Assembly: GCA_017934955.1 (NCBI GenBank)
Contig: JAGBIO010000034.1
Coordinates: forward strand, 2,123 to 66,122
DNA length: 64,000 nucleotides
Source: Clostridia bacterium
Lineage (GTDB): Bacteria > Bacillota > Clostridia > TANB77 > RGIG9151
Direction of reading: 5' to 3'
The notes beneath the pieces are model-generated. The model saw only the letters and a program-made list of their open reading frames with translations. It did not search any database and had not been told where the DNA came from. A program made the position numbers and the translations under genes. This document shows, in pieces, positions 10,078 to 56,340 of the stretch (positions are counted from its first letter, which is position 1; every line of letters begins with the position of its first letter).

Positions 10078-10078
10078 T

Positions 10079-10177
10079 TTAGGACAGCATGAATGCTGTC
10101 CGTACAGGAAGATAGAGATTGAAATGGATAAAGGTTGCACGATCCTTGTAGGGACACAATTTATTGTGTCCGTTGAG
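10079..10177. repeat. REP pair (type A then type B) lying between the two cgs-like ORFs.
   Basis: Reads aggacagcatgaatgctgtccgtacagg ... gtagggacacaatttattgtgtccgttg. Confidence 0.9.
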
Positions 10178-10199
10178 TATATCTATGTGGAGGATAGAA

Positions 10200-12914
10200 A
10201 TGAGAGATACGAAGAGTATTCTTTGGAGTTATGGAATTTCCGGAGATTTACCGATTGTTTTGATTATTGTTCGAAAATATGAAGATTTGGATGTAATTGA
10301 TGAGTTAATCAAGGCACATGAATATTGGAGATTGAAGGGACTTTTCATTGATTTGGTTGTGATTAGCGATGAGGAAATGAGTTATCATCATCCTTTGTGG
10401 AATAGTATTTTTGATATTATTACTTCGGGGCATTTGATTAATCTACAGAATGTGAGTGGCGGTATTTTTTTGCTGCGGGGAGAGATTTTGTCGAAGGAGG
10501 ATATTTCAAAAATTCGGGAGATTGCGGCGATTGTGGCGGAGAATGGGAAAATTCTTTTGGAGGAAGAGTTGTATGGAGATAATAAGAAGTGCGGTTTTGA
10601 GCAGGAGAGTGTCCCGGAGAAGAAATGTTTGGAGAAGCAAAAGTTGGAGTTTTTTAACGGAATTGGCGGGTTTGATGCAGAGAAAAAAGAATATGTTGTT
10701 TATTTGAATAAACAGCTTTTTCCGTTACTTCCATGGAGCAATGTTTTGGCAAATCCGAATTTCGGAACAATAACGACGGAGTCCGGTGGCGGTTATACGT
10801 GGGCATTGAACAGTCATGAATTTCGTTTGACACCGTGGTTAAACGATAGCGTGAGTGACGGACAGGGAGAGTTTATTGAGATTTTCGATATCGATAAAAA
10901 TCTTTCGTTTTCACCTTATTGGTTGCCATTTCGAAATCCTTTGGAGTATGAAGTGAGATTTGGACTTGGATATACAATTTATACGACGCAGGCAGATGAT
11001 TTGAAGATTACGTTGACGGTGTTTGTGCCTTTGGAAGAGAATGTGAAAATTTCTTTATTGCGAATTGAAAATTTGGCGGATTCTCCGAAACGACTTGCGT
11101 TAAAGTATTATTTGAATCCGGTTTTGGCAGACCATAATCATAAGCGAGAGAATCGGATTGAGAGTTTTTTTGACGGTCATCGATTGACTTTTCGAAATTC
11201 TTTTGAAAAGACATTTATGGCAAATACGGTATATTCGCAGATTTCAGGGAATACAAGTTTCTTTCGAAATCATGAGTTTTATGTCTTGGAAAGTGACTTT
11301 GAAATTGCAGGGAAATCTGGAGCAGAGAAAGTTTGTTTATTGGGCATTTTGGAAGAGGACAGAAAAAACTTTTTGGATGCTTCTACTTGCCGAGAAGAAC
11401 TTAAAAAAGCGGAGGATTTTTATCAAAAAGATATTTTGCGGAGTCAAGTGGATACACCGGATTCGGCGATGAATCTATTGTTAAACAATTTTTTATTGTA
11501 TCAGACGTACAATTGCCGCATTTTAGCGCGAAGTTCTTTTTATCAGTCGGGTGGCGCCATCGGGTTTCGCGATCAGTTGCAGGATGTTCTGCCGTTTGCG
11601 TATTTGAAACCGGAGATTGTGAAGAAGCAGATTTTATTACATGCAAAACATCAGTTTGAGGAAGGCGATGTTCTTCATTGGTGGCATGAAGATTTGATGC
11701 GGGGTACGAGAACACGTTTTTCTGATGATTTGTTATGGTTGGTGTATGTGACGAATGAGTATGTGAATGTGACGCAGGATATGGATTTATTGGATTGCCA
11801 AGTGAATTTTGCGAAGGCACCGTTATTGGATGAGGGCGAGGATGAGCGATATTTGGAGTATTCTTATTCTGAGAATAGTGCGTCGGTTTTTTCGCATTGT
11901 GTGTTGGCGATTGAGAGAAGTTTGAAGTATGGGGAACATGGCTTGGCGTTAATGGGGTCCGGCGATTGGAATGATGGGATGAATGAGGTTGGAAATAAAG
12001 GAAAAGGGGAGAGTGTTTGGCTTTCTTGGTTTTTGTATAAGATCCTTGCGGATTTTTCTCCGATTTGTCGAAGTCGCGGAAGAAATGATTTGGCGGAGCG
12101 ATATTCGAAGGAGGCGGCAATTTTACGTGATAATATTAATAAAAATGCTTGGGATGGAGAATGGTATAAGCGAGCCTTTTTTGATGATGGGACAGCGTTA
12201 GGTTCGATTTCGAATGAAGAGTGTAAAATCGATTCGATTTCGCAGTCTTGGAGTGTGATTTCGGACGCGGGAGAAGAGGAAAAACGTCGAAGGGCGATGA
12301 GTTCGTTAGAACATTATTTGATGGATGATGAAAATGGATTGATTAAGCTGTTGTCGCCGGCGTTTAAGGATTGCGATTTGGAACCGGGATATATTAAGAG
12401 TTATCCAGAGGGAATTCGGGAAAACGGTGGACAGTATACGCATGCGGCAATTTGGGCAGGAATTGCGTTTGCGTTGATGAAGGAAACGGATAAAGCGAAT
12501 AAAGTTTTCGAGATGTTGAATCCGATTAATCATGCGAGAACGGATAGCGAGATGAAGAAGTATAAGGCGGAGCCGTATGTAATTGCGGCGGATGTTTATA
12601 CGAATCCGCTACATGTAGGACGTGGCGGTTGGAGTTGGTACACCGGTGCGGCGTCTTGGATGTATCGATTTGGGGTTGAGTATATTTTGGGATTCCGGAA
12701 AAGGGGAGAACGTGTGATGATGGAGCCTTGCGTGAAGACGGATTGGAGCGATTATGGTTTGACATATCGCTATAAAGATACGGTTTATCATATTCGGGTA
12801 TTCTTGAAAGGGGATAAGAAGAACAAAGTGATTGTGGATCATCATATTCAGGATGGAAATTCCTTTGAGTTGGTGAATGATGGAGAGGAACATTCGATTG
12901 AGGTTTATCGGTAG
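10200..12914 (+). CDS. GH94 glycoside phosphorylase-like catalytic domain, forming the C-terminal portion of the Cgs-like system.
   Basis: ATG at 10200 lies 5 nt after a GGAGGA RBS. Contains LWSYGISGDLPIV and an (alpha/alpha)6-barrel region typical of the cellobiose phosphorylase family. Confidence 0.6.
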   Translation: MRDTKSILWSYGISGDLPIVLIIVRKYEDLDVIDELIKAHEYWRLKGLFIDLVVISDEEMSYHHPLWNSIFDIITSGHLINLQNVSGGIFLLRGEILSKEDISKIREIAAIVAENGKILLEEELYGDNKKCGFEQESVPEKKCLEKQKLEFFNGIGGFDAEKKEYVVYLNKQLFPLLPWSNVLANPNFGTITTESGGGYTWALNSHEFRLTPWLNDSVSDGQGEFIEIFDIDKNLSFSPYWLPFRNPLEYEVRFGLGYTIYTTQADDLKITLTVFVPLEENVKISLLRIENLADSPKRLALKYYLNPVLADHNHKRENRIESFFDGHRLTFRNSFEKTFMANTVYSQISGNTSFFRNHEFYVLESDFEIAGKSGAEKVCLLGILEEDRKNFLDASTCREELKKAEDFYQKDILRSQVDTPDSAMNLLLNNFLLYQTYNCRILARSSFYQSGGAIGFRDQLQDVLPFAYLKPEIVKKQILLHAKHQFEEGDVLHWWHEDLMRGTRTRFSDDLLWLVYVTNEYVNVTQDMDLLDCQVNFAKAPLLDEGEDERYLEYSYSENSASVFSHCVLAIERSLKYGEHGLALMGSGDWNDGMNEVGNKGKGESVWLSWFLYKILADFSPICRSRGRNDLAERYSKEAAILRDNINKNAWDGEWYKRAFFDDGTALGSISNEECKIDSISQSWSVISDAGEEEKRRRAMSSLEHYLMDDENGLIKLLSPAFKDCDLEPGYIKSYPEGIRENGGQYTHAAIWAGIAFALMKETDKANKVFEMLNPINHARTDSEMKKYKAEPYVIAADVYTNPLHVGRGGWSWYTGAASWMYRFGVEYILGFRKRGERVMMEPCVKTDWSDYGLTYRYKDTVYHIRVFLKGDKKNKVIVDHHIQDGNSFELVNDGEEHSIEVYR

Positions 12915-12956
12915 AATGAGCATTTAATAGATAAGTTCTAAAAAGTTGTATATAAT

Positions 12957-12985
12957 TTGACTTTTTGGAACTTATCTATTATAAT
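12957..12985 (+). promoter_or_regulatory. Sigma-A-type promoter (TTGACT, 17-nt spacer, TATAAT) nested in a 13-bp perfect inverted repeat.
   Basis: Consensus hexamers read directly. AATAGATAAGTTC (12926-12938) and GAACTTATCTATT (12968-12980) flank and overlap them. Confidence 0.5.
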
Positions 12986-13005
12986 ATTCTTAAGAGGTGT
13001 TTTTT

Positions 13006-14298
13006 ATGAAAAGAGAAATTATGAAGGATTTGTTAAAATGGAAGGAATCGAATCATAGAAAGCCACTCATTGTTCATGGGGCAAGACAGGTTGGGAAGAC
13101 GTATAGTGTGAAAGAGTTTGGAAAGCAGAATTATGATAATATGATATATGTTAATTTTGAGACGAATAAGGAATTGAGTAAGCAGATTGATGAAAGCATA
13201 GATGTACACTATATTATCAATAAATTGGAGTTATTTTTCGGAGAAAAAATTATTCCGGGAAAAACTTTGGTGTTTTTTGATGAAATTCAGGCAAATGAGA
13301 GGGCATTGACTTCGTTGAAGTATTTTTGTGAGGATGCGCCGGAGTATCATGTGATTGCTGCGGGATCTTTGCTTGGAATTGCCATTAATCGTGAGAACTA
13401 TTCTTTCCCGGTAGGAAAAGTGCAAATGTTGAATATGTATCCGCTTTCTTTTCAGGAATTTTTGATGGCAGTCAATCGGGAGAATTTAATCGAGGAGATT
13501 CGGAGACATTTTGAGACGGATGAGAGAATGGATAACAATTTGCATGAATTGTGTTTGCGGCTATATCGGACGTATTTGATTGTAGGCGGAATGCCGGAGG
13601 TGGTTCAAACTTATTTAGAGGAAGAAAAAGTGATTGCGGTATTAGATGTGCAGGCAATGATTTTAGATTCTTATGTGAGAGATATGACGAAGTATGCTAC
13701 TAATTCCGAGTCCAATAAAATTGTAGCGGCATTTGATTCCATCCCGGTTCAATTGGCAAAAGATAATCCGAAATTTCAGTATAAAGTGATTTCTCGTGGG
13801 GCAACCTCAAGTTTGTTTGGACCTGCGATTTTGTGGTTAAAAAATAGTGGAATTGTGAATCAGGTATTTAAGGTGAATCCGCAAATACCATTAGAAATGT
13901 ATAAGGATTTAGCGTCGTTTAAGCTATATATGAGCGATGTGGGGTTATTTGTAAATAAGGCAGGTTATCCTTTATATCAGGTTGATTTAAGTTCACAACC
14001 GACGATGATTTCAATGGGACCTCTTACAGAACATTATGTAGCAAATGAGTTAAAAGTGAATGGATATGAAGCCTATTATTGGGAGTCAGAAGGAAAGGCA
14101 GAAGTGGATTTTATTATTCAAAGAGATATGAATGTTGTTCCGATTGAAGTAAAATCCGGAATTCAGATAAAGTCCAGAAGTTTGGATTTGTATCGGAAAA
14201 CATTTCAACCGGAGTATGCAATTCGAATTTCCGAGAGAAATTTTGGATTTGAGAACGGAATAAAGTCGGTACCATTGTATGCTGTGTTTTGTATATAA
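13006..14298 (+). CDS. AAA+ ATPase with a C-terminal DUF4143 domain.
   Basis: Walker A GARQVGKT and Walker B VFFDEIQ are present. RBS TAAGAGG lies 8 nt upstream. Confidence 0.7.
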   Translation: MKREIMKDLLKWKESNHRKPLIVHGARQVGKTYSVKEFGKQNYDNMIYVNFETNKELSKQIDESIDVHYIINKLELFFGEKIIPGKTLVFFDEIQANERALTSLKYFCEDAPEYHVIAAGSLLGIAINRENYSFPVGKVQMLNMYPLSFQEFLMAVNRENLIEEIRRHFETDERMDNNLHELCLRLYRTYLIVGGMPEVVQTYLEEEKVIAVLDVQAMILDSYVRDMTKYATNSESNKIVAAFDSIPVQLAKDNPKFQYKVISRGATSSLFGPAILWLKNSGIVNQVFKVNPQIPLEMYKDLASFKLYMSDVGLFVNKAGYPLYQVDLSSQPTMISMGPLTEHYVANELKVNGYEAYYWESEGKAEVDFIIQRDMNVVPIEVKSGIQIKSRSLDLYRKTFQPEYAIRISERNFGFENGIKSVPLYAVFCI

Positions 14299-14340
14299 AA
14301 GAAAAGCCCCTGTGCTGTTAACAGGAGCTTTTCTTTTAAA
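14299..14340. terminator. Bidirectional rho-independent terminator.
   Basis: AAAAGCCCCTGTGCTGTTAACAGGAGCTTTTCTTTT forms a hairpin flanked by A and T runs, between convergent genes. Confidence 0.6.
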
Positions 14341-14584
14341 GCATTTGTAAAATAAATAAAACGGCAATTCCTGGAAGACCTAAAACGCCGGCAACGAGTG
14401 CGGTGACGAAGTTTAGATCGATGTGGAAACCAAAATATTGACCGATGAAATTAATGATGATGAGGGCGAGTCCGCCTAAAATTGCATTTGCAAAGAGTTT
14501 TAAAATAAATTTTATCGGTGCGGCAAATAATTTTGCGATTAGGCAGACGCCGATAATCGCGGCTATGTATATGAATATTTCCAT
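14336..14584 (-). CDS. bofA: Sigma-K processing inhibitor BofA.
   Basis: 82 aa with two transmembrane helices. Matches the BofA pattern including the LGLPGIA-like C-terminal helix. Lies downstream of a yaaL-like gene, as in Bacillus. Confidence 0.6.
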   Translation of the reverse strand: MEIFIYIAAIIGVCLIAKLFAAPIKFILKLFANAILGGLALIIINFIGQYFGFHIDLNFVTALVAGVLGLPGIAVLFILQML

Positions 14585-14599
14585 GTGGATTCCTCCTTA

Positions 14600-14878
14600 C
14601 TAAAGCCCTTTTTCCTTTGCTTTTTTGAGTAAGTACTGGTATCTCGTTTGGGTTGCTTTGATGTTATAGGTGTAGTAATCGACGAGTTCCGGATCGTTTG
14701 CAAATTCATAGTTGTTTACGGCTGTTTCAAATTCATTTTGGGCATTTTTTAAATTTTTAATTAATTCAATGGTGTCGGTATCTTCGGGCTTGGTTTTTGT
14801 TATTTTTTCAAGCAGATACTGAAAGATATTGGCATCTTTCTTTTCGATATTTGTGATATCATTGAAAATCTCTTCCAT
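14600..14878 (-). CDS. yaaL: YaaL/DUF2508 family protein.
   Basis: 92-aa acidic helical protein immediately upstream of bofA, the conserved yaaL-bofA synteny. Confidence 0.5.
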   Translation of the reverse strand: MEEIFNDITNIEKKDANIFQYLLEKITKTKPEDTDTIELIKNLKNAQNEFETAVNNYEFANDPELVDYYTYNIKATQTRYQYLLKKAKEKGL

Positions 14879-14902
14879 ATGACTACCTCCAAAGTAATAA
14901 AT

Positions 14903-14929
14903 ACGAGGATCCTGTCCTCGTATTTACAT
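14903..14929 (-). terminator. Hairpin terminator after the SLH protein gene.
   Basis: ATACGAGGA-TCCTG-TCCTCGTAT gives a 9-bp stem followed by a T-rich tract on the minus strand. Confidence 0.5.
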
Positions 14930-14958
14930 TATAGTCATAGGTTTCTGAAATTATTCCA

Positions 14959-17325
14959 TTAATCCATTAAAATGATAAGACTGGTATAATATTTTGAAGA
15001 TTTTTCTTTGTATACGAAAACTACCACCTCATCGTCTTCGTCTAAAACATCTTCGTAGTCATCTGCATAGTAATATAAATCGCCTTCCGGGTCGTCGGAA
15101 GATCTTTCAATGATGACACAATCATCTGCAATTTCAAAGGAGTATTCTTCGCCGTCATCGTCTTCGATTACGAGCTCGTCGTCGTATAATTCCGTGATAT
15201 ATCCGAAAACATAACCGTCGTCGATATTACTGCTGCTTGAAGAGGAGGAATTGAAGGCTGATTCTTTTGCAGCTAATTCAATTTTTTCAATATAATCATC
15301 ATCGTCTAAGGTCAGTCTTAAGAAAAGACCTTTTTTATAAAGATAAGATGTTGTAGAAACTGCAGAATAAGTCTTTGATACGGCGTTGTAGGAGAAGGTT
15401 GTCTTATTATCGAAATAGTAATCTTCGTCGCCTTCATCATATTCACCAAGGTAATCGTCCATTAAAACGTATTCTTTTCCGTCTTCATCTTCAATAATGA
15501 GATAACCGTCGGATTTACCGACTTCTACGATTTCACCGACAATTTTTTCCGGAGTTTCATCATCTGTTAAAGTGGATTCTTTTGAAGCAACTTCGATTTT
15601 AGTAAGATAATCGTTTTTATCCATTGTAATTTTTACATAGTAGCCTTTTTTATAAAGGTAAGATGTAGTTGCAATCGATTTATAAGATTTTGAAGACCCG
15701 TTATAAGTAAAGTCAGTATCGTCATCGAAATAGTAATCTTCGTCACCGTCGGAATATTCATCAATGTAGTCATCCATTAAAGTATATTTTTCGCCGTCAT
15801 CATCTTCGATAATAATGTAACCTTCGTCGTCATCCGCTTTTGTGATTTTTCCGATAATGGTTTCTTCAGAAGAAGTAAATTCAGATTTTTTGGAAGCAAC
15901 TTCGATTTTCGTAAGGTAATCATTTTTATCCACTGTAATCTTTACATAGTAACCCTTTTTGTAGAGATAAGATGTTGTGGCAATCGATTTATAAGTCTTT
16001 GAAGAACCATTGTAGGTAAATTTGGTATCATCATCGAAATAGTAATCTTCGTCGTTATCGGAATACTCATCGATATAGTCGTCCATTAAAGTATATTTTT
16101 CGCCGTCATCATCTTCGATAATGAGATAACCTTCGTCATCATCTGCTTTTGTAATCTTTCCGATAATGGTCTCTTCGGTTGCTGTTGCTTTTTTCGTTTC
16201 GATTTTAGTAATCGTATCCTCATTTTCTACCGTTAAAGTGATAGAATAATTCTTTTTCAAAGCTGAGGAAGCTGTTGAAGTTTTTCCGTCTAAATAGAAT
16301 TTTGTAGAAGATGTGTAATTATAGGTTGTTTTCTTTGCATTTTTTGTAACAGTGACCGTCTTTTTGGAAGTATCAAAGTCGGAAATTGTACCACTGACGG
16401 TTGTAATTACATCTTTTGTCATCTTCATCATGGTAATGTATGTACTGTCTTTCAAGGTAACGGTTACCGTGAGTCCTTTTTCCATTTCACTTGACGTTTT
16501 CTTCGTGGAATTTACATAGAATTCCGTGGAAGAATCGTATTCGTATTCTTCGGTATTTCCGGAAGAGTCTTTAATAAATACTGTTTTTAAAGTGGTATCA
16601 ATTTTAGTGATAGTACCGTTTAACACGGTAACTTTTCCTGTTGAAGTATTGGAATTTGAAGAGTTATTCGAAGTATCCGGTTTAATATCTACTTTTTTAT
16701 AAATTCTTTGTAAAATACAAGCCGCTTGCGCTCTTGTTACATTTGTTTTCGGCGAGAAATTTTCACTATCTACGCCGGCCATAATTTTTTCGGTGGAAAC
16801 GTAATAAACGTATGGCTTAGCACTTGGCGTGATGGAAGAAGCATCTGCGAAAGGAAGAATAATTAAAGATTTCGACTTTACTTCTTCAGCTTTTCCCATT
16901 ACTTTTGTAATTAAAACTGCCATTTCTTCACGAGTAATCGGTGCGTTGACTTGATCCGCAGAAAGCAGATTATCTAAATCACTTGTTTCTAACACTTTTG
17001 TTCCCAATAAATAGGCAACATCTTTTTTATATTGGGTTGTATATTTTGAAAGCGTATCGTAATAAGTTTCTAAGTATTTGTTTGCTGCATCCGGATAATT
17101 GTTAATGCCGGCGATTCTTGCGAGTAAAATCAAACTCTCGATTTTTGAAATGTTTTTGGATGGACGAAACGTACCGTCGGTATAGCCGGAAATAATTTTT
17201 TGTTCTACCATCTCTTCTACTACTTTTTGTGCCCAGTGTGTTTCGGGTAAATCCGAAAAAGTTTGAGCTAACGATGTTGATAATAGCATTGCTGCCGCAC
17301 ATGACAGTGCAATAAGTTTTTTCAT
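14959..17325 (-). CDS. Cell-surface protein with an N-terminal S-layer-homology (SLH) region and C-terminal highly acidic tandem repeats.
   Basis: Signal peptide MKKLIALSCAAAML is present. The SLH-like segment reads FSDLPETHWAQKVVEEM...ISGYTDGTFRP. There are three ~105-aa repeats rich in D/E (DDDGEKYTLMDDYIDEYSD). AGGAGG RBS precedes ATG at 17325. Confidence 0.7.
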   Translation of the reverse strand: MKKLIALSCAAAMLLSTSLAQTFSDLPETHWAQKVVEEMVEQKIISGYTDGTFRPSKNISKIESLILLARIAGINNYPDAANKYLETYYDTLSKYTTQYKKDVAYLLGTKVLETSDLDNLLSADQVNAPITREEMAVLITKVMGKAEEVKSKSLIILPFADASSITPSAKPYVYYVSTEKIMAGVDSENFSPKTNVTRAQAACILQRIYKKVDIKPDTSNNSSNSNTSTGKVTVLNGTITKIDTTLKTVFIKDSSGNTEEYEYDSSTEFYVNSTKKTSSEMEKGLTVTVTLKDSTYITMMKMTKDVITTVSGTISDFDTSKKTVTVTKNAKKTTYNYTSSTKFYLDGKTSTASSALKKNYSITLTVENEDTITKIETKKATATEETIIGKITKADDDEGYLIIEDDDGEKYTLMDDYIDEYSDNDEDYYFDDDTKFTYNGSSKTYKSIATTSYLYKKGYYVKITVDKNDYLTKIEVASKKSEFTSSEETIIGKITKADDDEGYIIIEDDDGEKYTLMDDYIDEYSDGDEDYYFDDDTDFTYNGSSKSYKSIATTSYLYKKGYYVKITMDKNDYLTKIEVASKESTLTDDETPEKIVGEIVEVGKSDGYLIIEDEDGKEYVLMDDYLGEYDEGDEDYYFDNKTTFSYNAVSKTYSAVSTTSYLYKKGLFLRLTLDDDDYIEKIELAAKESAFNSSSSSSSNIDDGYVFGYITELYDDELVIEDDDGEEYSFEIADDCVIIERSSDDPEGDLYYYADDYEDVLDEDDEVVVFVYKEKSSKYYTSLIILMD

Positions 17326-17575
17326 AAGTATCCTCCTTACGTAAAACACAATAAATTTTACACCATCATTCTATCATAAAACATTGGAGAATGGTAGTGT
17401 TTTTCATTTTTTCAACTTGGAAAATTTTCTTAACACATCTCATTAGACGAATTTTGGCAAAATTAAGTTTCACAAATTTGGAATTTTAAATTTTTTTTTC
17501 AAAATTTGTTAAGTAAGTTTGAAAAATGCCGATATGTTGGTTAGATAAATCAAAAGACAAGTGGAGGTTAGGAAT

Positions 17576-18166
17576 ATGAAGAGCAAAGGGAACGTTTTTA
17601 TAAATGCAGAGGACTTATATCAAGGGAAGACTGCTAAGATTGTGTATAACGGATCTTTAGCAAAAACAGGAAGTGACGCATTATATATTCATTTAGGATT
17701 TGGTATGATGTGGGATAATCTCACAGAAATTAAAATGACAAAAACAAATGAAGGATTTGTAGCAGAGGTACCGATTGCAAAGGCTGATTCGATTAACTTC
17801 TGCTTCAGAGATTCGAATAATAATTGGGATAATAATTCTTGCAAGAATTATTCTTACGCTGTTTCGAAACCGAAGATGATTAAAGCGACAGCTGAAACGA
17901 TCATTACTCCGGTAACGAATAAAGTAGAAGCCAAAATGTCTGAAATTGCAAAGATTATTGAGAACGCAACTCCTGCTGTTCCTAACGAACTCAGTTTGGT
18001 TCCTTCCAAGAATATTACGGAAGCGTATATTCAGAGAAAGAAGAATAAGTTGATGTTCTATAGATTGTTTAATTTTATTCCGAGAGAATTAACCGGAAAC
18101 GGAAAGAAGAACAAGACTTCCGGCGGATTGTTCAGCGGATTGTTTGGAAATACAAGAATTAAATAA
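17576..18166 (+). CDS. Hypothetical protein with a CBM25/26-like carbohydrate-binding N-domain. Its C-terminal ~40 aa are duplicated downstream.
   Basis: GGAGG RBS present. W/Y-rich beta-sandwich-like pattern (YIHLGFGMMWDN, NNNWDNNSCKNY). Confidence 0.35.
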   Translation: MKSKGNVFINAEDLYQGKTAKIVYNGSLAKTGSDALYIHLGFGMMWDNLTEIKMTKTNEGFVAEVPIAKADSINFCFRDSNNNWDNNSCKNYSYAVSKPKMIKATAETIITPVTNKVEAKMSEIAKIIENATPAVPNELSLVPSKNITEAYIQRKKNKLMFYRLFNFIPRELTGNGKKNKTSGGLFSGLFGNTRIK

Positions 18167-18176
18167 GAGATGAAAA
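18035..18176. repeat. Direct repeat, copy 1. Covers the 3' end of the 17576 gene and its terminator leader. Copy 2 is at 21655..21778.
   Basis: About 125 bp near-identical apart from two small indels. Flanks the 3.5-kb surface-protein module. Confidence 0.85.
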
Positions 18177-18200
18177 GACGGTGCGGTACCGTCTTTTTTG
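18167..18200 (+). terminator. Rho-independent terminator.
   Basis: AAGACGGTGCGGTACCGTCTTTTTTG. Confidence 0.7.
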
Positions 18201-18382
18201 CAATTCAGACTATAACTTATGGAGAACGTTTGCGCCATTATTTACCCAATTTCATATTGTAACTTATTTACTATAAAACCAATTATTGTTATACTTTTTT
18301 TTACTCTGCTGTAATGAAATTTTCTGTTAAGAAATAGGAAGAGAATGCCGATATTTAGAAAGAATGAGGAGGTGTACCCGAA

Positions 18383-18478
18383 ATGACTGAATTACAGAAT
18401 TTATTAAGTGAAATGAACAAAAATATTTGCGAAATCAATATGGTAAAAACTGTAATTGGGGGGGGGGTACACTATTAG
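18383..18478 (+). other. 31-codon leader ORF containing a G10 homopolymer (18458..18467), upstream of the surface-protein gene.
   Basis: GGAGG at 18368 precedes ATG at 18383. The G10 run is translated as GGG-GGG-GGG-G and stops at TAG 18476. A run this long is exceptional in this AT-rich genome. Confidence 0.6.
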
Positions 18479-18581
18479 ATAAAAAGAATAAAGAAGAAAT
18501 AATAAAGCATAGGGAAGAAAGTAGTTTAAAGTCAGAAGGGCTTTAGACTGCTTTCTTTTTGTGTTTTAAAGGAGGAGCAAG

Positions 18582-21500
18582 ATGAAAAAAGCAGTTATGG
18601 CGATGATTTCATTTGTAGTATTATTCAGCGTAGCGATGGGATATACTTTAACAATCCATGAGGAAAGCAGGGTTGTTACGGAAGAGGTGAGTGAAGGCGA
18701 AACGGTTACGATAGGCTTACCGGATCGTTCGCGAGCTAAATATACGGTAAATCAAGGAAATCCGCTATTAAGGGATTTTGGAAATCGATGTAAATTTATT
18801 ATGCCGGCTGAAAATGTAGAAATTACAATAGAAAAAGTATATGTAATAACTTTTAACAGTAACGGAGGAAATCGGGTAGTTACTAAAAAAATGGTTGCCG
18901 GGGAACCATACGGAACTCTGCCCATACCGAGCAAAAGCGGAAGCACGTTTGCCGGATGGTATAGCGACAGTGGACTTACAACAGAAGTAACAAGTACCGA
19001 TACCGTACCGGCGAGTGACCATACGTTATATGCAAAATGGAATCAAACAGAAGTCTTTACATTTGGGACAAACGGGAACACAACATGGGCAAAGTCCCAA
19101 GGGACAACAGTAAGTATCAGCGGTATAGCTGTAAAATCCGGAACTGCCAAATATCTCTGGAAACAAGGAACCGCAACAGCGGATGAAATCAGTAGTAGCG
19201 GAACAAGTTTTACAAGTGGAGATACAGTTACAAAGTCAGATGGAACAGGAAACAATTGGCGATTAAATGTTTATTGTGAAGACACAAATGAGAATCAATA
19301 TATAGCAGCAAGTGATGTATTTTATTTAGATAATACAGCTCCAACTGTGACATTAGCAAGCAAACAATTCAAAATGTTTCCGGACTTACCATATAGATTG
19401 AGTAACATAACTGAAGAAACGGTAGATGGGGTAAAAACATACACAACAACAAGTACGATACCAATCATTTATTTAGAAACAGGACTAAAGAAAGGAATTA
19501 GCGGAGTTACATTCAGCATTTCTCCGGCACCGAGTGAAGACTTACCGATCAGAATTTATACCAACGAACACACTACTTTGGAAACGTCTATTTTAGGGTC
19601 AGTCCCTGCAGGTAAGTCAAGAGCAACAATAGAAATACCGGAAGGAGACTATACGCAGATTGGCGTAAGGGTCGGATCTGAAGCAGGATTAACTTTTACG
19701 ATGAATCCGCTTGATGTTTTTGCAACGGATAATGATTTGTCGCATCCAACTTATATAAGATTTAATTTAAGCGGAACAGACGCTCATTCCGGAAATATAA
19801 CATATCAAGTAAGCAGCGATAACAAAGCAACTTGGAGTGACGTGAGCGGAACTCAATATACGGCAAAAGAACCTGGAACCTACTACTTTAGAGCCAAAGA
19901 TAAATTAGGAAATATAAGTGAAGCAATAGGTGGTTATACACACACAAGATCCTACAAACTTTACTTCAACAGTAACGGTGGAAGTACTGTAGCAACTCAA
20001 ATAGTAAAAAACGGAGATACTTATGGAACGTTACCAACGCCAACAAAGACAAATTATACATTTGCCGGTTGGTACAAAGAAAGTAGCTTAACCAATCAAG
20101 TAACAAGTAGTACTACAGTAACTGCAACGGGTAACCATACCTTATATGCGAAATGGACGGGAGTAAAATCAAACGTAACGTTAAATAATCAAAGTGCGAC
20201 AACAGCGGGAACAACGAGTGTAACAGCAACGTACGGAAGTGCAATGCCAAGTATAACAAAACCGTCAAAAACCGGTTATACTTTCGGAGGCTACTATACG
20301 GAAACAAACGGAGGAGGAACGCAGTACTACAAAGCAGACGGAAGCAGTGCAAAGAACTGGGATAAGACTGCGGCGACAACGTTATATGCAAAATGGACAG
20401 TCAATACGTATACGGTAACGTTAAATAATCAAAGTGCGACAACGGCGGGAACAACGAGTGTAACAGCAACGTACGGAAGCGCAATGCCAAGTATAACGAA
20501 ACCGGCAAAAACCGGTTATACGTTCGGTGGTTACTATACAGAAACAAACGGAGGAGGAACGCAGTACTATAAGGCAGATGGAAGCAGCGCGAAGAACTGG
20601 GATAAGACTGCAGCAACAACGTTGTATGCAAAATGGACAGCGAATACGTATACGGTAACGTTAAATAATCAAAGTGCGACAACAGCGGGAACAACGAGTG
20701 TAACGGCGACGTACGGAAGTGCAATGCCGAGTATAACGGTACCTACGAAAACCGATTATAGGTTTTTAGGATATTACACCGGAACAAATGGAACTGGTAC
20801 GCAGTATTATACATCAACAGGGACAAGTATAAAAAATTGGGATAAAACAACTGCGACAACACTTTATGCGGCCTGGAAAAGTGTAATTCCAACCTATACG
20901 TATACAGGAACTTCAAGTACCTCCAAAGATGATACATATTGGTATATTTATTTGAAATCCAGTGGTAATTTAACCTTTAGCGAAGCACAGTCAATCGACA
21001 TATTCCTTGTAGGTGGAGGCGGAGGCGGATATAATCAATCTTCTGGAACCGGACGTCGTGGAGGCGGAGGAGGTGGTGGATATACTGCCACACACAAAGG
21101 AATATATGCCGCTAATGGTACTACTTATTCTATAGTAGTTGGAGCCGGTGGTGCAGTGAACTGCAAAGGTGGTACAACATCTGCGTTTGGTAAATCTGTA
21201 AGTGGCGGATATCCTGGAACACACTGTGATAATATTAAAGATGGAGGTGATGGCGGCTCCGGTGGTGGTGCCGGTGCAGATTTTAGAACAAGTTCTAGTT
21301 ATTCCGGTACAGCCGGTGCAAGTAATGGTAACAGTGCAACAAGTGTATCCTATGGTAGTCCTTGGAACGACTATAACTATGGAGGAACAGGTCAGGGATC
21401 TACCACAAGAGCCTTCGGAACAGGTGCACTCTATGCCGGTGGAGGAGGCGGCGGTGGACAAAATCCAAGCTCCGGTGGTGCCGGTGGAGGTGGTGCCGGT

Positions 21501-21641
21501 GCAGGTAATGTCGACGGAATTTCCGCTGTTGCCGGAACTGCCAATACCGGCGGCGGAGGCGGCGGTGGTAGTGGAGATTCTACTTGGGCACGTGGTGCAG
21601 CCGGTGGTTCCGGTGTTGTAATTATCCGCGGTCTTCATTAA
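18582..21641 (+). CDS. Large secreted surface protein with Listeria-Bacteroides (Flg_new-type) repeats and a C-terminal glycine-rich (Gly_rich-like) domain.
   Basis: Signal peptide present. Multiple units read YTFAGWY...TLYAKW. Three identical 80-aa repeats. C-terminal GGGGGGY/GGGGGG tracts. Confidence 0.7.
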   Translation: MKKAVMAMISFVVLFSVAMGYTLTIHEESRVVTEEVSEGETVTIGLPDRSRAKYTVNQGNPLLRDFGNRCKFIMPAENVEITIEKVYVITFNSNGGNRVVTKKMVAGEPYGTLPIPSKSGSTFAGWYSDSGLTTEVTSTDTVPASDHTLYAKWNQTEVFTFGTNGNTTWAKSQGTTVSISGIAVKSGTAKYLWKQGTATADEISSSGTSFTSGDTVTKSDGTGNNWRLNVYCEDTNENQYIAASDVFYLDNTAPTVTLASKQFKMFPDLPYRLSNITEETVDGVKTYTTTSTIPIIYLETGLKKGISGVTFSISPAPSEDLPIRIYTNEHTTLETSILGSVPAGKSRATIEIPEGDYTQIGVRVGSEAGLTFTMNPLDVFATDNDLSHPTYIRFNLSGTDAHSGNITYQVSSDNKATWSDVSGTQYTAKEPGTYYFRAKDKLGNISEAIGGYTHTRSYKLYFNSNGGSTVATQIVKNGDTYGTLPTPTKTNYTFAGWYKESSLTNQVTSSTTVTATGNHTLYAKWTGVKSNVTLNNQSATTAGTTSVTATYGSAMPSITKPSKTGYTFGGYYTETNGGGTQYYKADGSSAKNWDKTAATTLYAKWTVNTYTVTLNNQSATTAGTTSVTATYGSAMPSITKPAKTGYTFGGYYTETNGGGTQYYKADGSSAKNWDKTAATTLYAKWTANTYTVTLNNQSATTAGTTSVTATYGSAMPSITVPTKTDYRFLGYYTGTNGTGTQYYTSTGTSIKNWDKTTATTLYAAWKSVIPTYTYTGTSSTSKDDTYWYIYLKSSGNLTFSEAQSIDIFLVGGGGGGYNQSSGTGRRGGGGGGGYTATHKGIYAANGTTYSIVVGAGGAVNCKGGTTSAFGKSVSGGYPGTHCDNIKDGGDGGSGGGAGADFRTSSSYSGTAGASNGNSATSVSYGSPWNDYNYGGTGQGSTTRAFGTGALYAGGGGGGGQNPSSGGAGGGGAGAGNVDGISAVAGTANTGGGGGGGSGDSTWARGAAGGSGVVIIRGLH
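20161..20880 (+). repeat. Three near-perfect tandem copies of a 240-bp unit inside the surface-protein CDS.
   Basis: taacgttaaataatcaaagtgcgacaac recurs at 20181, 20421 and 20661 with an exact 240-bp period. Confidence 0.9.
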
Positions 21642-21654
21642 GTGTTGCTCTATT

Positions 21655-21778
21655 GAAAGAATAAGTTGATGTTCTATAGATTGTTTAATTTTATTCCGAG
21701 AGAATTAACCGGAAACGGAAAGAAGAACAAGACTTCCGGCGGATTGTTTGGAAATACGAAAGTTAAATAAGAGATGAA
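21655..21778. repeat. Direct repeat, copy 2: an orphan 3' gene fragment (KLMFYRLFNFIPRELTGNGKKNKTSGGLFGNTKVK).
   Basis: It matches 18035..18176. No start codon, and an in-frame TGA lies immediately upstream. Confidence 0.85.
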
Positions 21779-21806
21779 AAAAGGCGACGAAAGTCGTCTT
21801 TTTTTT
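21778..21806 (+). terminator. Rho-independent terminator.
   Basis: AAGGCGACGAAAGTCGTCTTTTTTTT. Confidence 0.6.
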
Positions 21807-21859
21807 GAATAGGCTGACTTTTATGTAAAACTGTGGTAAAATAAAGTTAAAATAGAAAA

Positions 21860-22025
21860 AAGTTACTATTCAGACTCAAATCTATAGAAAAAGTACAAGT
21901 ACTGTAGGGACAGCATTCATGCTGTCCACAGAATAGGCAGAAAAGCAGGACAGCATAAATGCTGTCCCTACAATAAATTGAGAAAAATTTAAGGTCATAT
22001 ATATAGGTAAGTCTGACCTGTAACA
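21860..22025. mobile_element. MITE-like unit: a REP doublet (21903..21972) bracketed by terminal inverted repeats GTTACTATTCAGACT / AGTCTGACCTGTAAC.
   Basis: Both TIRs and both REPs were read directly. The same architecture recurs at 23340..23545 and 32183..32360. Confidence 0.55.
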
Positions 22026-22040
22026 AAAAAGGAGTCGGGT

Positions 22041-23273
22041 ATGAGGGTAATTGTGATTGGCGCAGGTGCGTCGGGGCTTATGGCGGCGGGTGTTGCGGCT
22101 AAGAAAGATGACGTGCTTGTGATTGAGAAGAATGATAGGGCAGGGAGAAAATTAGCGATTACGGGGAAGGGCAGATGCAATATTACAAATGCGGCGGATA
22201 TTGGTGATTTTATCGATATGGTGCCGGGAAATGGGAAGTTTTTGTATTCTGCGTTTTATTCTTTTACGAATGAGGATGTAATTGCGTTTTTTCGAGAATT
22301 AGGGGTTGAAACGAAAGTGGAACGTGGCGGAAGAGTTTTTCCGGTTTCGGATTCGGCGAAAGATGTGGTAAATGCGTTGGTGAAATTTTGCAGGAATACC
22401 GGTGTAAAATTTCGTTATAATAGCAGTGTGAAAAGGATTTTAACGGAAAATAAAGCTGTAAAAGGCGTTATTTTGCAGGATGGGTCAATCTTGGAATGCG
22501 ATAAAGTGATTGTGGCAACCGGGGGAAAGAGTTATCCGGCGACGGGGTCGACAGGCGCTGGCTATCGTTTCGCGGAGGAAGCGGGACATCGAGTTCTTCC
22601 GATAAAACCGTCTTTAGTGGGATTGGCGGCGAAGGAAGGGTATTGTAAGGAGTTGCAAGGGCTTTCTTTAAAAAATGTTGCGTTTACTTTAAAAACGAGT
22701 GTCGGAAAGGAAATTTATTCAGATTTTGGAGAGATGCTTTTTACGCATTTTGGCGTGTCCGGACCGATTGTGTTGAGTGGAAGCCGATGGTTGCATCCGT
22801 TTATGAAAGAGGATAGAAGTGTGACAGGTGTTAAGGCGGAGATTGATTTGAAACCGGCGTTGGAGGAAGAGCAGTTAGATAAGCGATTATTGCGGGATTT
22901 TGAAAAGTATCAAAATAAACAGATAAAAAATGCATTGTTTGATTTGCTTCCGGAAAAGTTGATTCCTGTCGTGATTGCATTGACGAAAATTGAGGAAGAA
23001 AAGAAAGTGAATGAAATTACGAAGGAAGAACGAAAGCGAATGGTTGAAATTTTGAAACATTTTCCATTGACAATTGCGGGACTTCGACCGATTGATGAGG
23101 CGATTATTACGGCGGGTGGCGTTTGTGTGGATGAGATTGATCCGGGAACGATGGAGTCGAAGCTGGTGAAAGGTTTGTATTTTTGCGGAGAAGTTTTGGA
23201 TTTGGATGCCTATACCGGAGGTTTTAATTTGCAGATTGCCTTTTCGACCGGATATTTGGCGGGGCAGAGTTAA
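22041..23273 (+). CDS. HI0933/YhiN-family FAD-dependent flavoprotein (NAD(P)/FAD oxidoreductase).
   Basis: N-terminal Rossmann motif VIVIGAGASGLMAA. 410 aa is typical of the family. AAGGAG RBS present. Confidence 0.75.
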   Translation: MRVIVIGAGASGLMAAGVAAKKDDVLVIEKNDRAGRKLAITGKGRCNITNAADIGDFIDMVPGNGKFLYSAFYSFTNEDVIAFFRELGVETKVERGGRVFPVSDSAKDVVNALVKFCRNTGVKFRYNSSVKRILTENKAVKGVILQDGSILECDKVIVATGGKSYPATGSTGAGYRFAEEAGHRVLPIKPSLVGLAAKEGYCKELQGLSLKNVAFTLKTSVGKEIYSDFGEMLFTHFGVSGPIVLSGSRWLHPFMKEDRSVTGVKAEIDLKPALEEEQLDKRLLRDFEKYQNKQIKNALFDLLPEKLIPVVIALTKIEEEKKVNEITKEERKRMVEILKHFPLTIAGLRPIDEAIITAGGVCVDEIDPGTMESKLVKGLYFCGEVLDLDAYTGGFNLQIAFSTGYLAGQS

Positions 23274-23339
23274 ATTTGAAGAATTTATATTGATTAAAAA
23301 GAAACTCTTTTGGAGAGAATAGTCTCTAAGAGAGTTTCT

Positions 23340-23545
23340 TTTTTGTTATTATTCAGACTCAATAGCCTTTAAGTTTCGAACTGAACTATTAAATTCTACC
23401 GAAATAAAGGCGAAAACGCTGTAGGGACACAATTTATTGTGTCCGCGGAATCGTCAGATAGTCGAAATAGGACACAATAAATTGTGTCCCTACAATGATA
23501 ATACAATCATTGAAGAAAGATATAGTCTGAAAAGTAACCTTTTTT
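23340..23545. mobile_element. MITE-like unit: a type-B REP doublet (23419..23493) within GTTATTATTCAGACT ... AGTCTGAAAAGTAAC inverted ends.
   Basis: Read directly. Confidence 0.5.
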
Positions 23546-23567
23546 AAACATTTCTGCGGAGGCTTTT

Positions 23568-24782
23568 ATGAATAAGAAGATTTTTAAAATTATGACGTTA
23601 CTTACAGCTTTTTTATTATATGTATATGTTTCGATTTACAGTAATGTGCCGAGTAGCATTACTTTGATTGAGGGGAAGGAAATTACGTATCCGTTTTATC
23701 AAATTTTGAATATGGATTTTTCGCCGGAGAGTAGTATTAAGGCGGTGGGAAGCAAGTTGTCGTCTTCGGTGGTGGGGAAGGAAAGTGTGCGTGTTAGTTT
23801 ATTTGGGAAGATTCCTCTAAAAAAGATTGATGTGAATGTGATTTCGAAGTCGGTGGTGTTGGCGGATGGTGAGATTATTGGGATGAAGCTTAAGACGCCG
23901 GGATTGACGGTAGTGACGTTTGAGGAGTTTACCGGAAGAAATTATCAGAAAGTACGACCGTATGAGAATTTGAATATTCAGCGTGGCGATATGATTACTT
24001 CGATTGATGGTGAAGAGATTACAGATGTGGATATGTTTGTGGATCGAATTCAGAAATCTCAGGGAAGAGAATTGATATTGGAGCTTCAGCGGAATAAAGA
24101 GAAGCTTACCGAGCGGATTAAACCGGAGATAGATCGAAATGATGGTAAATATAAATTGGGCATTTGGGTGAAGGATTTAACGAGCGGCGTTGGGACGGTA
24201 ACTTTTATTGAACCAAGTCGGTATATGTTTGCGGCGTTGGGGCATGGAATTAATGATATTGATGAGATGAATTTGCTGGAAATCAAGGGTGGAACGGCTT
24301 ATCGGGCGATGGTTTTGTCGGTTGTGAAGGGGCAGAAAGGTGCGCCGGGCGAGATTCGTGGGGCGATGAAGGAGAACGATATTTTCGGAAATATTGTGAA
24401 AAATACGCGAAATGGTGTGTTTGGGTATTTGGATAACAATGTAGAACTTTCGCTAAATCCGATTGAAGTTGGGTTAAAGGATGAAGTGATGGAAGGAGAA
24501 GCGGAGATTTTGGCGACGGTGTCGGGAAATGATCCGAAGCGTTACAAGGTGATGATTGAGAAGGTGAATCGGAAGGATAGCACCTTAGGACGAAATATGG
24601 TGATTCGGGTGACGGATGAGGAGTTGATCGCGAAAACCGGTGGAATTGTGCAGGGAATGAGCGGCAGCCCGATTATTCAGAATGGTAAATTGATTGGAGC
24701 GGTTACGCATGTCTTGATTAATGAGCCGACGAGGGGATATGGAATTTTTGTGGAGAATATGTTGAATGAGATGGCGGGATAG
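23568..24782 (+). CDS. spoIVB: Stage IV sporulation protein B (SpoIVB), an S55 peptidase with a PDZ domain.
   Basis: PDZ region reads GDMITSIDGEEI. S55 C-terminal region reads GIVQGMSGSPIIQNGKLIGAVTHV. Has an N-terminal signal anchor. GGAGG RBS present. Confidence 0.8.
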   Translation: MNKKIFKIMTLLTAFLLYVYVSIYSNVPSSITLIEGKEITYPFYQILNMDFSPESSIKAVGSKLSSSVVGKESVRVSLFGKIPLKKIDVNVISKSVVLADGEIIGMKLKTPGLTVVTFEEFTGRNYQKVRPYENLNIQRGDMITSIDGEEITDVDMFVDRIQKSQGRELILELQRNKEKLTERIKPEIDRNDGKYKLGIWVKDLTSGVGTVTFIEPSRYMFAALGHGINDIDEMNLLEIKGGTAYRAMVLSVVKGQKGAPGEIRGAMKENDIFGNIVKNTRNGVFGYLDNNVELSLNPIEVGLKDEVMEGEAEILATVSGNDPKRYKVMIEKVNRKDSTLGRNMVIRVTDEELIAKTGGIVQGMSGSPIIQNGKLIGAVTHVLINEPTRGYGIFVENMLNEMAG

Positions 24783-26051: not shown

Positions 26052-26254
26052 TATAATGATGGTACAAACACCGTAGGGATAGCATTTATGCTGTCCATGA
26101 AGTAGGCAGAAAAGCAGGACAGCATAAATGCTGTCCGTACAATAATTGGTACCATTAATTTGTCAAGAAGGCACAAACACTGTAGGGACACAATTTATTG
26201 TGTCCGCGGAATAGGCAGGTGGTAGAATTAGGACACAATGAATTGTGTCCGTAC
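26052..26254. repeat. REP cluster: two type-A plus two type-B REPs arranged as two inverted pairs.
   Basis: Reads ccgtagggatagcatttatgctgtcca...aggacagcataaatgctgtccgtac ... ctgtagggacacaatttattgtgtccgcggaataggcagg...ggacacaatgaattgtgtccgtac. Confidence 0.9.
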
Positions 26255-26341
26255 AAGTCGTATTCTGACGATATTTTTTTGAAAAATACAAAATTTGAAT
26301 CTGACCGGTAACCAAGAGTTTTATGGAATATTGCCAAATCA

Positions 26342-52592: not shown

Positions 52593-52738
52593 AACGATAA
52601 ATGGAGTGTTGAGGGATTTGGTGAGTTTAAATTTTGAATTTTATGGTGATAATGCAAAAAAATCGACATAAAAACTAAAGTTTTTCGATGAATCTGACGA
52701 TATATATAATGATGCTAAAGATAAAGAGGTGAGAATGA

Positions 52739-56144: not shown

Positions 56145-56340
56145 ATGCTGTCCGTACAGAAAGAGAAATAAGCCGAATAGGGACACAATAAATTGTGTCC
56201 GTACAGAGGGAAAGAGAAATAAGCAAAATAGGGACAGCATGAATGCTGTCCGTACAGAGGGAAAGAGAAATAAGCAAAATAGGGATACAATAAATTGTGT
56301 CCGTACAGAGGGGAAGAGAATACAAGTACGAATGAGAATT
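56130..56340. repeat. REP cluster: four REPs alternating type A and type B, all the same orientation, with agagRgaaagagaaataagc linkers.
   Basis: Read directly. Confidence 0.9.

Follow-up and report, generated by a model that had tools for sequence, protein, structure and literature searches.

Homopolymer phase variation is textbook knowledge for Campylobacter, Neisseria, Haemophilus, Helicobacter, and Moraxella. The switches that we know of in Clostridia are DNA inversions, such as those of cwpV and flgB. Several described systems resemble parts of the locus analyzed here. In Moraxella catarrhalis uspA1, low and high expression correspond to a difference between G9 and G10 (or between G10 and G11-12) (PMC7302503). 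In Helicobacter pylori, the length of the tlpB G-repeat, which is targeted by the small RNA (sRNA) RepG, tunes a surface-related function (PMC8295292). The repeat of Haemophilus influenzae hmw1A is part of a long hairpin that governs expression, with processing by RNase III (PMC12721329). Clostridioides difficile cwpV is phase-variable, with a 195-bp segment inverted by a site-specific recombinase (PMC2784873). Finally, repression of an intrinsic terminator of E. coli is nearly complete with a stop codon only a few bases away, and full activity returns beyond ~30 bp (PMC4824070). We analyzed a stretch of 64,000 nucleotides (nt) of Clostridia bacterium DNA, referred to here as the window, in which a run of ten G's (18458-18467, + strand) lies within a short upstream open reading frame (ORF). 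This leader ORF precedes the gene of a predicted secreted surface protein of 1019 amino acids (aa). We propose the G run as a candidate heritable switch with random outcome, which it probably is.

The initial annotation had called the G run unexpected for this genome, and it is a real outlier. It is the sole G or C run of at least 7 in the window, where the longest C run is at most 5 and there is one G6 besides. G runs of 3, 4, 5, and 6 number 523, 104, 20, and 1, which is an ~5.5-fold drop per extra G. When these counts are extrapolated, ~0.004 runs of at least 10 G's are expected in the window, versus 0.1 from a base-frequency model. G and C homopolymers are strongly depleted, with 2 G runs of at least 6 seen versus the 18 that base frequencies alone predict. 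(G is twice as frequent as C on the + strand, 27.0% versus 12.9%, and nearly all of the large ORFs are on this strand.) The leader tract is also the only G or C run of at least 6 in 12 kb around a paralogous locus of the same organism (contig L003) and in 9 kb around a homologous locus of another species (contig L041), both described below. As is typical of contingency loci, the run is long enough to slip (about 7 to 8 or more) and anomalous for its genome. A NovaSeq poly-G artifact was ruled out as its origin, because the run has unique flanks and occurs in several assemblies and at a second locus, and because JGI data of unrelated origin contain a counterpart of seven G's.

The length of the tract differs between public sequences. 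The 1019-aa protein was found on five public contigs, which come from ruminant gastrointestinal metagenomes (ENA XIEF21-1 assemblies) and from the NCBI metagenome-assembled genome (MAG) named Clostridia bacterium. The study behind the contigs used PCR-free libraries and NovaSeq reads of 150 nt (PMC8199421). The tract is G10 on L001/L015 (SAMN15830134), as in the window, and G9 on L016/L017 (SAMN15830104). Counted by contig, the G9 product (P0003) is on three, and G10 is on two (scaffold_659 and the window). The initial annotation had suggested comparing tract lengths across isolates, and the outcome was positive. L001 (G10) and L017 (G9) differ only in the tract over 6,901 nt, with 0 mismatches, so that the repeat number varies between otherwise identical strains, as in a contingency locus. 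The window differs from all other contigs in the tract and in one substitution, which is also in the leader (18508, + strand; C in the window, A in the other contigs and the paralogue) and is the sole one over about 9 kb. A sixth contig, L002 (SAMN15830109), starts with exactly nine G's, which is the last base shared by G9 and G10. An assembly graph would fork at this break point if G9 and longer alleles coexist. At the paralogous locus, a G10 run is identical in four contigs, including one from the assembly (SAMN15830104) that has G9 at this locus. Therefore, a G10 run is not intrinsically misassembled. These sequence comparisons argue well, if indirectly, for natural variation in the length of the tract.

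The ORF around the tract was confirmed at its annotated coordinates, with 31 codons, a strong ribosome-binding site (RBS), and an ATG ahead of the 1019-aa gene at 18582. Its Shine-Dalgarno sequence, GAGGAGG (18366-18372, + strand), is 10 nt before the ATG at 18383. In the G10 allele, the leader ORF (18383-18478, + strand) encodes MTELQNLLSEMNKNICEINMVKTVIGGGVHY and ends at a TAG (18476-18478). In the G9 allele, it ends at a TAA (18480-18482) after 32 aa, and so both observed alleles end within 4 codons of each other. With G8 or G11, the frame reaches a TAG at 18544-18546 and the product has 54 aa. Therefore, the original frame arithmetic, which had G11 extending the leader to 18546, was correct. 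As for the extended state itself, only the short G9 and G10 forms were seen at this locus, and an equivalent (C followed by G10) was seen only at the paralogue. Tract length shifts the frame and stop of the leader ORF, not the frame of the surface gene. The extension crosses a purine-rich linker (18468-18546, + strand), in which the three frames contain 4, 4, and 0 stop codons. The stop-free frame, which is that of G8 and G11, terminates within the 3' arm of a hairpin, and the G9 and G10 stop codons are 31 to 35 nt upstream of that hairpin. The chance of 25 open codons is ~0.02 per frame (at ~0.15 stops per codon).

From its sequence, the leader ORF is predicted to bind ribosomes and to be translated. 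No relatives of its product beyond the paralogue and truncated alleles were found by two word-index searches and one exhaustive HMMER search (5.8 billion clusters; 1.84 billion representatives). These searches included a profile search with all leader-peptide variants, and the HMMER query was the 51-aa paralogue. Because it has no relatives but the paralogue and its N-terminal 19 residues are not conserved, the product is more in keeping with a regulatory ORF than with a functional protein. Two ideas about the peptide were discarded. A likeness of its MVKTV to MVKTD of the cat-86 leader was judged to be chance. Attenuation by glycine starvation, with GGG codons before a glycine-rich protein, would place the stalled ribosome >40 nt from the hairpin, and no conserved antiterminator was found.

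The hairpin, which was overlooked in the initial annotation along with a sigma-D-like promoter, resembles an intrinsic terminator (18514-18567, + strand). It has 20 to 22 bp, is rich in A/U and G·U pairs, and is followed by UUGUGUUUU. Its arms (18514-18533 and 18539-18558) enclose an AGAAG loop, and it has an energy of −26 kcal/mol and a fold z-score of −6.3. The pairing is kept in 95% of cells of a four-sequence alignment, with two pairs changed on both sides. The C at 18508 that sets the window apart can pair with G18563, adding a C-G pair at the base of the extended stem. The Shine-Dalgarno sequence of the surface gene, AAGGAGGAG (18569-18577, + strand), begins 1 nt past the terminator tail, with its GGAGG core 3 nt past it. 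This leaves no space for a promoter after the hairpin. Therefore, transcription of the surface gene must cross the hairpin, which is the only obvious way in which the leader frame could act on that gene. Duplex searches revealed no classical trp/his-type antiterminator, because the partners of the hairpin arms were weak (−10 versus −26 kcal/mol for the hairpin itself) and not conserved. A mechanism of the pyrBI type needs no antiterminator. A pyrG-type antiterminator, in which the poly-G would pair with a pyrimidine-rich 3' arm, was rejected because the adjacent 20-bp hairpin would outcompete the G·U pairing.

Two predicted promoters precede the leader. The nearer one is a sigma-D/sigma-28-like motif, TAAG-N15-GCCGATAT (18328-18354, + strand), with a predicted start near 18361, just 5' of the leader RBS. 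It is a putative promoter by its match to the B. subtilis sigma-D/sigma-28 consensus. A motif of this type (TAAA-N15/16-GCCGATAT-like) is at the equivalent place and at a suitable upstream distance in L003 (TAAA-N16-GCCGATAA) and L041 (TAAA-N16-GACGATAA). In the alignment of the window and L003, its TGCCGATA is invariant amid an otherwise diverged stretch. Further upstream, promoter scans of the window and L003 found a sigma-A-like promoter on the + strand, in which TTTACT (18267-18272) is followed after 17 nt by TG-n-TATACT (18290-18295). It lies in a block (18228-18310, + strand) that is ~95% identical between the paralogous loci by alignment and is not recognizable in L041. The sigma-D-like motif has three matches in the window, and all are upstream of genes. 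The other two are TAAG-N14-GCCGATAT (17510-17535), before a CBM53 gene, and TAAA-N16-GACGATAT (52676-52703), before a type IV pilus operon with PilC, three pilins, PilD, and PilM. This suggests, at the level of motifs, that the CBM53 gene, the leader, and the pilus operon might form a shared surface/motility regulon.

Homologous leaders were found at two other loci. A query with the hypothetical 54-aa G11 product identified a 51-aa protein (P0001) with 71% identity. Its locus (L003/L004) belongs to the same organism and has a Cu_amine_oxidN1 gene on one side and groES on the other, and its leader precedes a different protein, a 656-aa Flg_new/glycine-rich protein. In the alignment, both loci share a near-identical promoter block and the sigma-D-like motif. 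They are again near-identical from ATATGGTAAAAACTGTAATT through the tract, linker, and hairpin, but they have drifted apart in the RBS and in the N-terminal half of the ORF. The paralogous tract is a C followed by G10, and so its leader is in the long, open frame. The third leader is on JGI contig L041, upstream of a gene for a 1119-aa protein (P0006). This protein is only 47% identical to the surface protein, and therefore L041 is from a different species. Its leader consists of the sigma-D-like motif, an RBS and AUG, 25 codons up to the tract, ATGGTAAAAATTGTAATT, G7, and a repeat-bearing linker, followed by the same hairpin and U-run and then an RBS and ATG. Two of its frames stop 39 to 46 nt before the main stem. 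The stop of the remaining frame (G6/G9) is only 11 nt from the stem, directly against an outer 5-bp extension. The L041 linker (2887-2928) contains three copies of a 14-nt unit, GATAATAGAGAAAA. Because 14 is not divisible by 3, gain or loss of a copy would move the leader frame as well as alter the distance to the hairpin.

The leader is a conserved unit in this three-locus sequence comparison, with the promoter motif, RBS and AUG, an 18-nt block, the G tract, and the hairpin with its U-run present at all three loci. The 18-nt block, ATGGTAAAAACTGTAATT (18440-18457, + strand), is identical at 17 of 18 nt across species, synonymous positions included. A short ORF with its own RBS in the 5' leader, as expected of an attenuator, is present in all three leaders, with 8 to 11 nt between the Shine-Dalgarno sequence and AUG. 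The distance from the ATG to the tract is 75 nt in the window, 75 nt in L041, and 66 nt in L003, all multiples of 3. Terminator scans found the hairpin and U-run of a predicted intrinsic terminator at all three loci. Another paralogue, P0005, is without such a leader, and two candidates (P0122 and P0106) proved to be unrelated loci. The tract-flank pattern CTGTAATT-N7-15-TACACTATTAGA had only chance matches, none with a G run (10 matches in GTDB species genomes and 21 in JGI metagenomes), and it was too strict to catch L041, which is itself in the JGI data. One scan of viral contigs with each of the hairpin core and the 18-nt block gave no match.

We tentatively suggest, at somewhat less than even odds, that a slippage tract in a translated leader ORF toggles ribosome-dependent read-through of a leader terminator. 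The G tract would be the slippage-prone repeat within the translated upstream ORF of a conserved attenuator-type 5' leader, a type that would belong to a small family of surface-protein genes. Transcription from the sigma-D-like promoter, or from the sigma-A-like one further upstream, would have to pass the hairpin and U-run. Gain or loss of one G would relocate the leader-ORF stop, so that tract length modulo 3 would set where ribosomes stop. With G9 or G10, ribosomes would halt 31 to 35 nt before the hairpin, the terminator would form, and the gene would be off or low. With G8, G11, or C followed by G10, they would cross the 5' arm and halt inside the 3' arm, so that the hairpin would be occluded and read-through would turn the gene on. 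The long frame may additionally help translation of the surface gene. Under this model, one of the two paralogous loci of the organism would have the on frame and the other an off frame. The frame geometry is compatible with coupling of ribosome and polymerase, since the stop is inside the 3' arm in one frame and 31 to 35 nt upstream in the other two. By our analysis, it falls on both sides of the ~30-bp boundary known from E. coli. It is also possible, although we consider it rather doubtful, that the leader is a heritable stochastic attenuator on several paralogous surface genes, so that individual cells show different family members.

Several observations weigh against this proposal. Both alleles seen at the locus have short frames, and G8 and G11 were never seen there. 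In L041, the tract is only G7 and the longest frame stops before the hairpin rather than inside it. The two loci with an open long frame are nearly identical in DNA there and amount to little more than one observation. Covariation in the hairpin is thin, with four sequences, two compensatory pairs, and 71 of 500 shuffles scoring equally, and a long A/U-rich hairpin could instead be an RNase III site or a stabilizer. The RNA polymerase of Bacillus subtilis outruns ribosomes, which would weaken any ribosome-dependent antitermination unless the polymerase pauses. With an intact MutS encoded in the window, slippage rates would be moderate. Finally, the leader fold and the exposure of the RBS were unchanged when the tract was varied from G5 to G14, and therefore the difference between G9 and G10 could be neutral.

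The same architecture appeared in separate minimum-free-energy folds of the window, L003, and L041. In these folds, the last G's of the tract and the ACAC after them pair with a C-rich stretch that lies between the RBS and AUG. In the window, this stretch is GGUGUACCC (18371-18379, + strand), the 5' strand of a predicted long-range helix with 18465-18473 (GGGUACACU); CCUC takes its place in L003, and CCCU does so in L041. CUGUAAUU and the first G's pair with the opening codons of the leader ORF, leaving the AUG in an internal loop. In the window, CUGUAAUU (18450-18457) pairs with 18390-18397. Six of the seven G's are paired in L041, and only ~5 are needed in the window. These models suggest that the run had an older structural role, in which ~5 G's would pair with C-rich segments around the leader start codon, and that it probably began as a structural strand and later expanded in this species. 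They also suggest that a one-base change in the tract acts mainly on the reading frame. Inverted repeats join the promoter block to the G-tract block and are absent from the minimum-free-energy folds. They may be an RNA helix of a longer transcript, a protein-binding dyad, or a recombination site. No Rfam 15 family had a match in the window at the gathering score. In 18150-18620, there were only chance-level matches, the best by score being STnc40 (20.8 bits versus a cut-off of 45) and the lowest E-value being 0.03, for rli43 (18.5 bits versus 100).

The G run might therefore be mainly a structural RNA strand that sequesters the leader start, with G9 and G10 neutral and the leader under some other control, for example by a protein, by RNase III acting on the long hairpin, or by how efficiently translation proceeds. 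We think that this is possible but less than likely. The tract and ACAC were paired to the C-rich stretch on the RBS side in all three folds, with the AUG in the internal loop and nearly all of the L041 run paired, and the fold was constant across tract lengths. Conservation of the 18-nt block at synonymous positions points to a constraint on RNA or DNA, not on the peptide, and the G9 and G10 ORFs have nearly the same end. In addition, a 22-bp duplex is long enough for RNase III, as in the hmw1A 5' untranslated region (UTR) (PMC12721329). However, ~5 G's suffice for pairing, which leaves a run of 9 or 10 unexplained. Neither does pairing explain why one linker frame is stop-free and ends inside the hairpin whereas the others have 4 stops each, or why a U-run directly follows the hairpin at all three loci. 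A different possibility is that the leader ORF is a genuine small gene of ~51 to 54 aa with its own terminator, frameshifted here, and that the surface gene is reached by leaky read-through. The frameshift would then make it a pseudogene or reflect ordinary phase variation within the ORF of a small protein. The paralogous product is intact at 51 aa and is an NCBI hypothetical protein, a stop codon within a terminator stem is common for ordinary genes, and the long-frame translations of the window (TLLDKKNKEEIIK) and L041 (TQLEDNREKIIEK) are loosely similar. However, the product has no relatives but the paralogue in the searches above and so does not make up a conserved small-protein family, its N-terminal half is unconserved, and the part that is conserved is conserved as nucleotides. 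Furthermore, the homologous frame in L041 is closed and 13 codons shorter, and the surface gene is without its own promoter after the hairpin. We consider this explanation unlikely.

Two further explanations concern the DNA itself. The difference in length could be a sequencing or assembly artifact at a homopolymer that is stable in vivo. NovaSeq uses two-color chemistry, metagenome assemblers pick one path, and there are only five or six contigs, some possibly from the same reads as the MAG. However, the libraries were PCR free, G9 recurs in three contigs and G10 in two, and the paralogous tract is identical in four contigs. Within a single assembly (SAMN15830104), moreover, the paralogous tract is G10 while this locus is G9. 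An artifact is therefore very unlikely. We would give an even slimmer chance to a DNA-level switch, in which the G tract alters the spacing of an internal promoter (TTGGGG ... TAGATA/AATAAT) or the promoter is on an invertible segment. Promoter-like matches were found in the linker at all three loci, but they have poor hexamers and are no commoner than in shuffled sequence, and any transcript from the linker would still carry the hairpin. As for inversion, there are inverted repeats at 18245-18268/18437-18460 and 18279-18290/18448-18459, with others in L003 (5928-5949/6037-6058) and L041 (2709-2724/2845-2860), where the repeat core, TTTTTACC/GGTAAAAA, recurs. However, these repeats are short and imperfect (73 to 83%), and the paralogue has not kept the best arm of the window. 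The segment has one and the same orientation on all contigs that span it, and the eight neighboring gene products scanned (5086-24782) gave no match to a recombinase family. This is not what would be expected of an inverton.

The gene downstream of the leader (18582-21641, + strand) has the NCBI name InlB B-repeat-containing protein in the Clostridia bacterium MAG. Its 1019-aa product has a signal-peptide-like N terminus, Flg_new (Listeria-Bacteroides/InlB B) repeats, and a C-terminal Gly_rich_2 domain. Within the gene, a unit of ~240 bp occurs three times in tandem (20139-20860; 78 to 87% identical), encoding repeated NNQSATTAGTTSVTATYGSAMPSITKP... Flg_new modules. Recombination between these units could vary the size of the protein. 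A perfect 92-bp direct repeat flanks the locus (18041-18132 and 21657-21748). Its second copy, directly after the 1019-aa gene, duplicates the CBM53 3' end and brings another stop codon; past this copy, near 21779-21806, is a hairpin that resembles a terminator. Because of the flanking repeat, the unit of promoter block, leader, and surface gene resembles an inserted 3.6-kb cassette, with the tail of the CBM gene as its insertion site.

The window also encodes SLH-domain, SpoIVB, GH94, MutS, and type IV pilus genes. A gene for an ATPase with AAA_14 and DUF4143 domains is near the surface locus (12997-14298) and also next to the paralogue P0005 (L039, 8541-9893), which may be a coincidence or may reflect a linked function. 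A palindrome resembling repetitive extragenic palindromic (REP) elements, with the core TGTAGGGACA...TGTCC, is found between genes, usually as inverted pairs, with 37 matches in the window versus ~2 expected. Examples are at 21903-21972, 23420-23494, 26132-26255, and 56149-56307 in the window and at 2541-2613 in L039. Copies in L003 (5773-5859 and 6186-6259) flank the leader at the paralogous locus.

If the leader works as we propose, slipped-strand control would extend to an uncultured rumen member of the Clostridia. The wiring would also be new, because the repeat would act through the stop codon of an upstream ORF that gates a terminator, and not through a promoter or the frame of the gene itself. 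An RBS and AUG, a G run, and a stop-free frame into a hairpin with a U-run would then be a searchable signature, which could reveal hidden surface variation in gut metagenomes.

The pyrBI attenuator of E. coli follows the same logic of a leader stop near a terminator, and its variable is polymerase pausing that depends on UTP, which is physiological and reversible within a cell. Here, in contrast, the variable would be a heritable frameshift of the leader ORF, and coupling in Clostridia is assumed. A leader-ORF stop near or within a terminator, where a trailing ribosome blocks the hairpin, is also the situation in the E. coli tR2 position series (PMC4824070). In cwpV, phase-variable production of a large clostridial surface protein is decided downstream of the promoter, by formation or not of an intrinsic terminator in the leader RNA (PMC2784873). 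The gene described here also encodes a large clostridial surface protein and has a putative leader terminator, but all contigs agree in orientation, and a homopolymer in a leader ORF is the candidate switch. In hmw1A, a simple repeat is transcribed in the 5' UTR of an adhesin gene (PMC12721329), much as the G tract would be in the leader here. However, the hmw1A repeat is a heptanucleotide that forms a hairpin arm, whereas the G tract belongs to an ORF and ends 46 nt ahead of the hairpin. The tlpB-hp0102 leader of H. pylori likewise has a variable G-repeat that pairs with pyrimidine-rich RNA (PMC8295292). Its partner is a trans-acting sRNA, its control is gradual rather than frame periodic, and it lacks both a leader ORF and a terminator. 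The G tract described here is predicted to pair in cis, with the C-rich segments around the leader AUG. In uspA1, the mRNA level depends on the length of a poly-G tract (6 to 12 G's) that lies a short distance ahead of the adhesin ORF (PMC7302503). That effect was measured for uspA1 and is predicted here. The uspA1 tract is also 29 bp from the ORF, has no described leader ORF or terminator, and is in a Gram-negative organism. By this comparison, the upstream poly-G of uspA1 is the closest in working to the G tract described here. Even so, the leader is not a member of any of the compared systems, because its repeat is within an upstream ORF, its predicted pairing partner is in cis, and its presumed output is the gating of a terminator.

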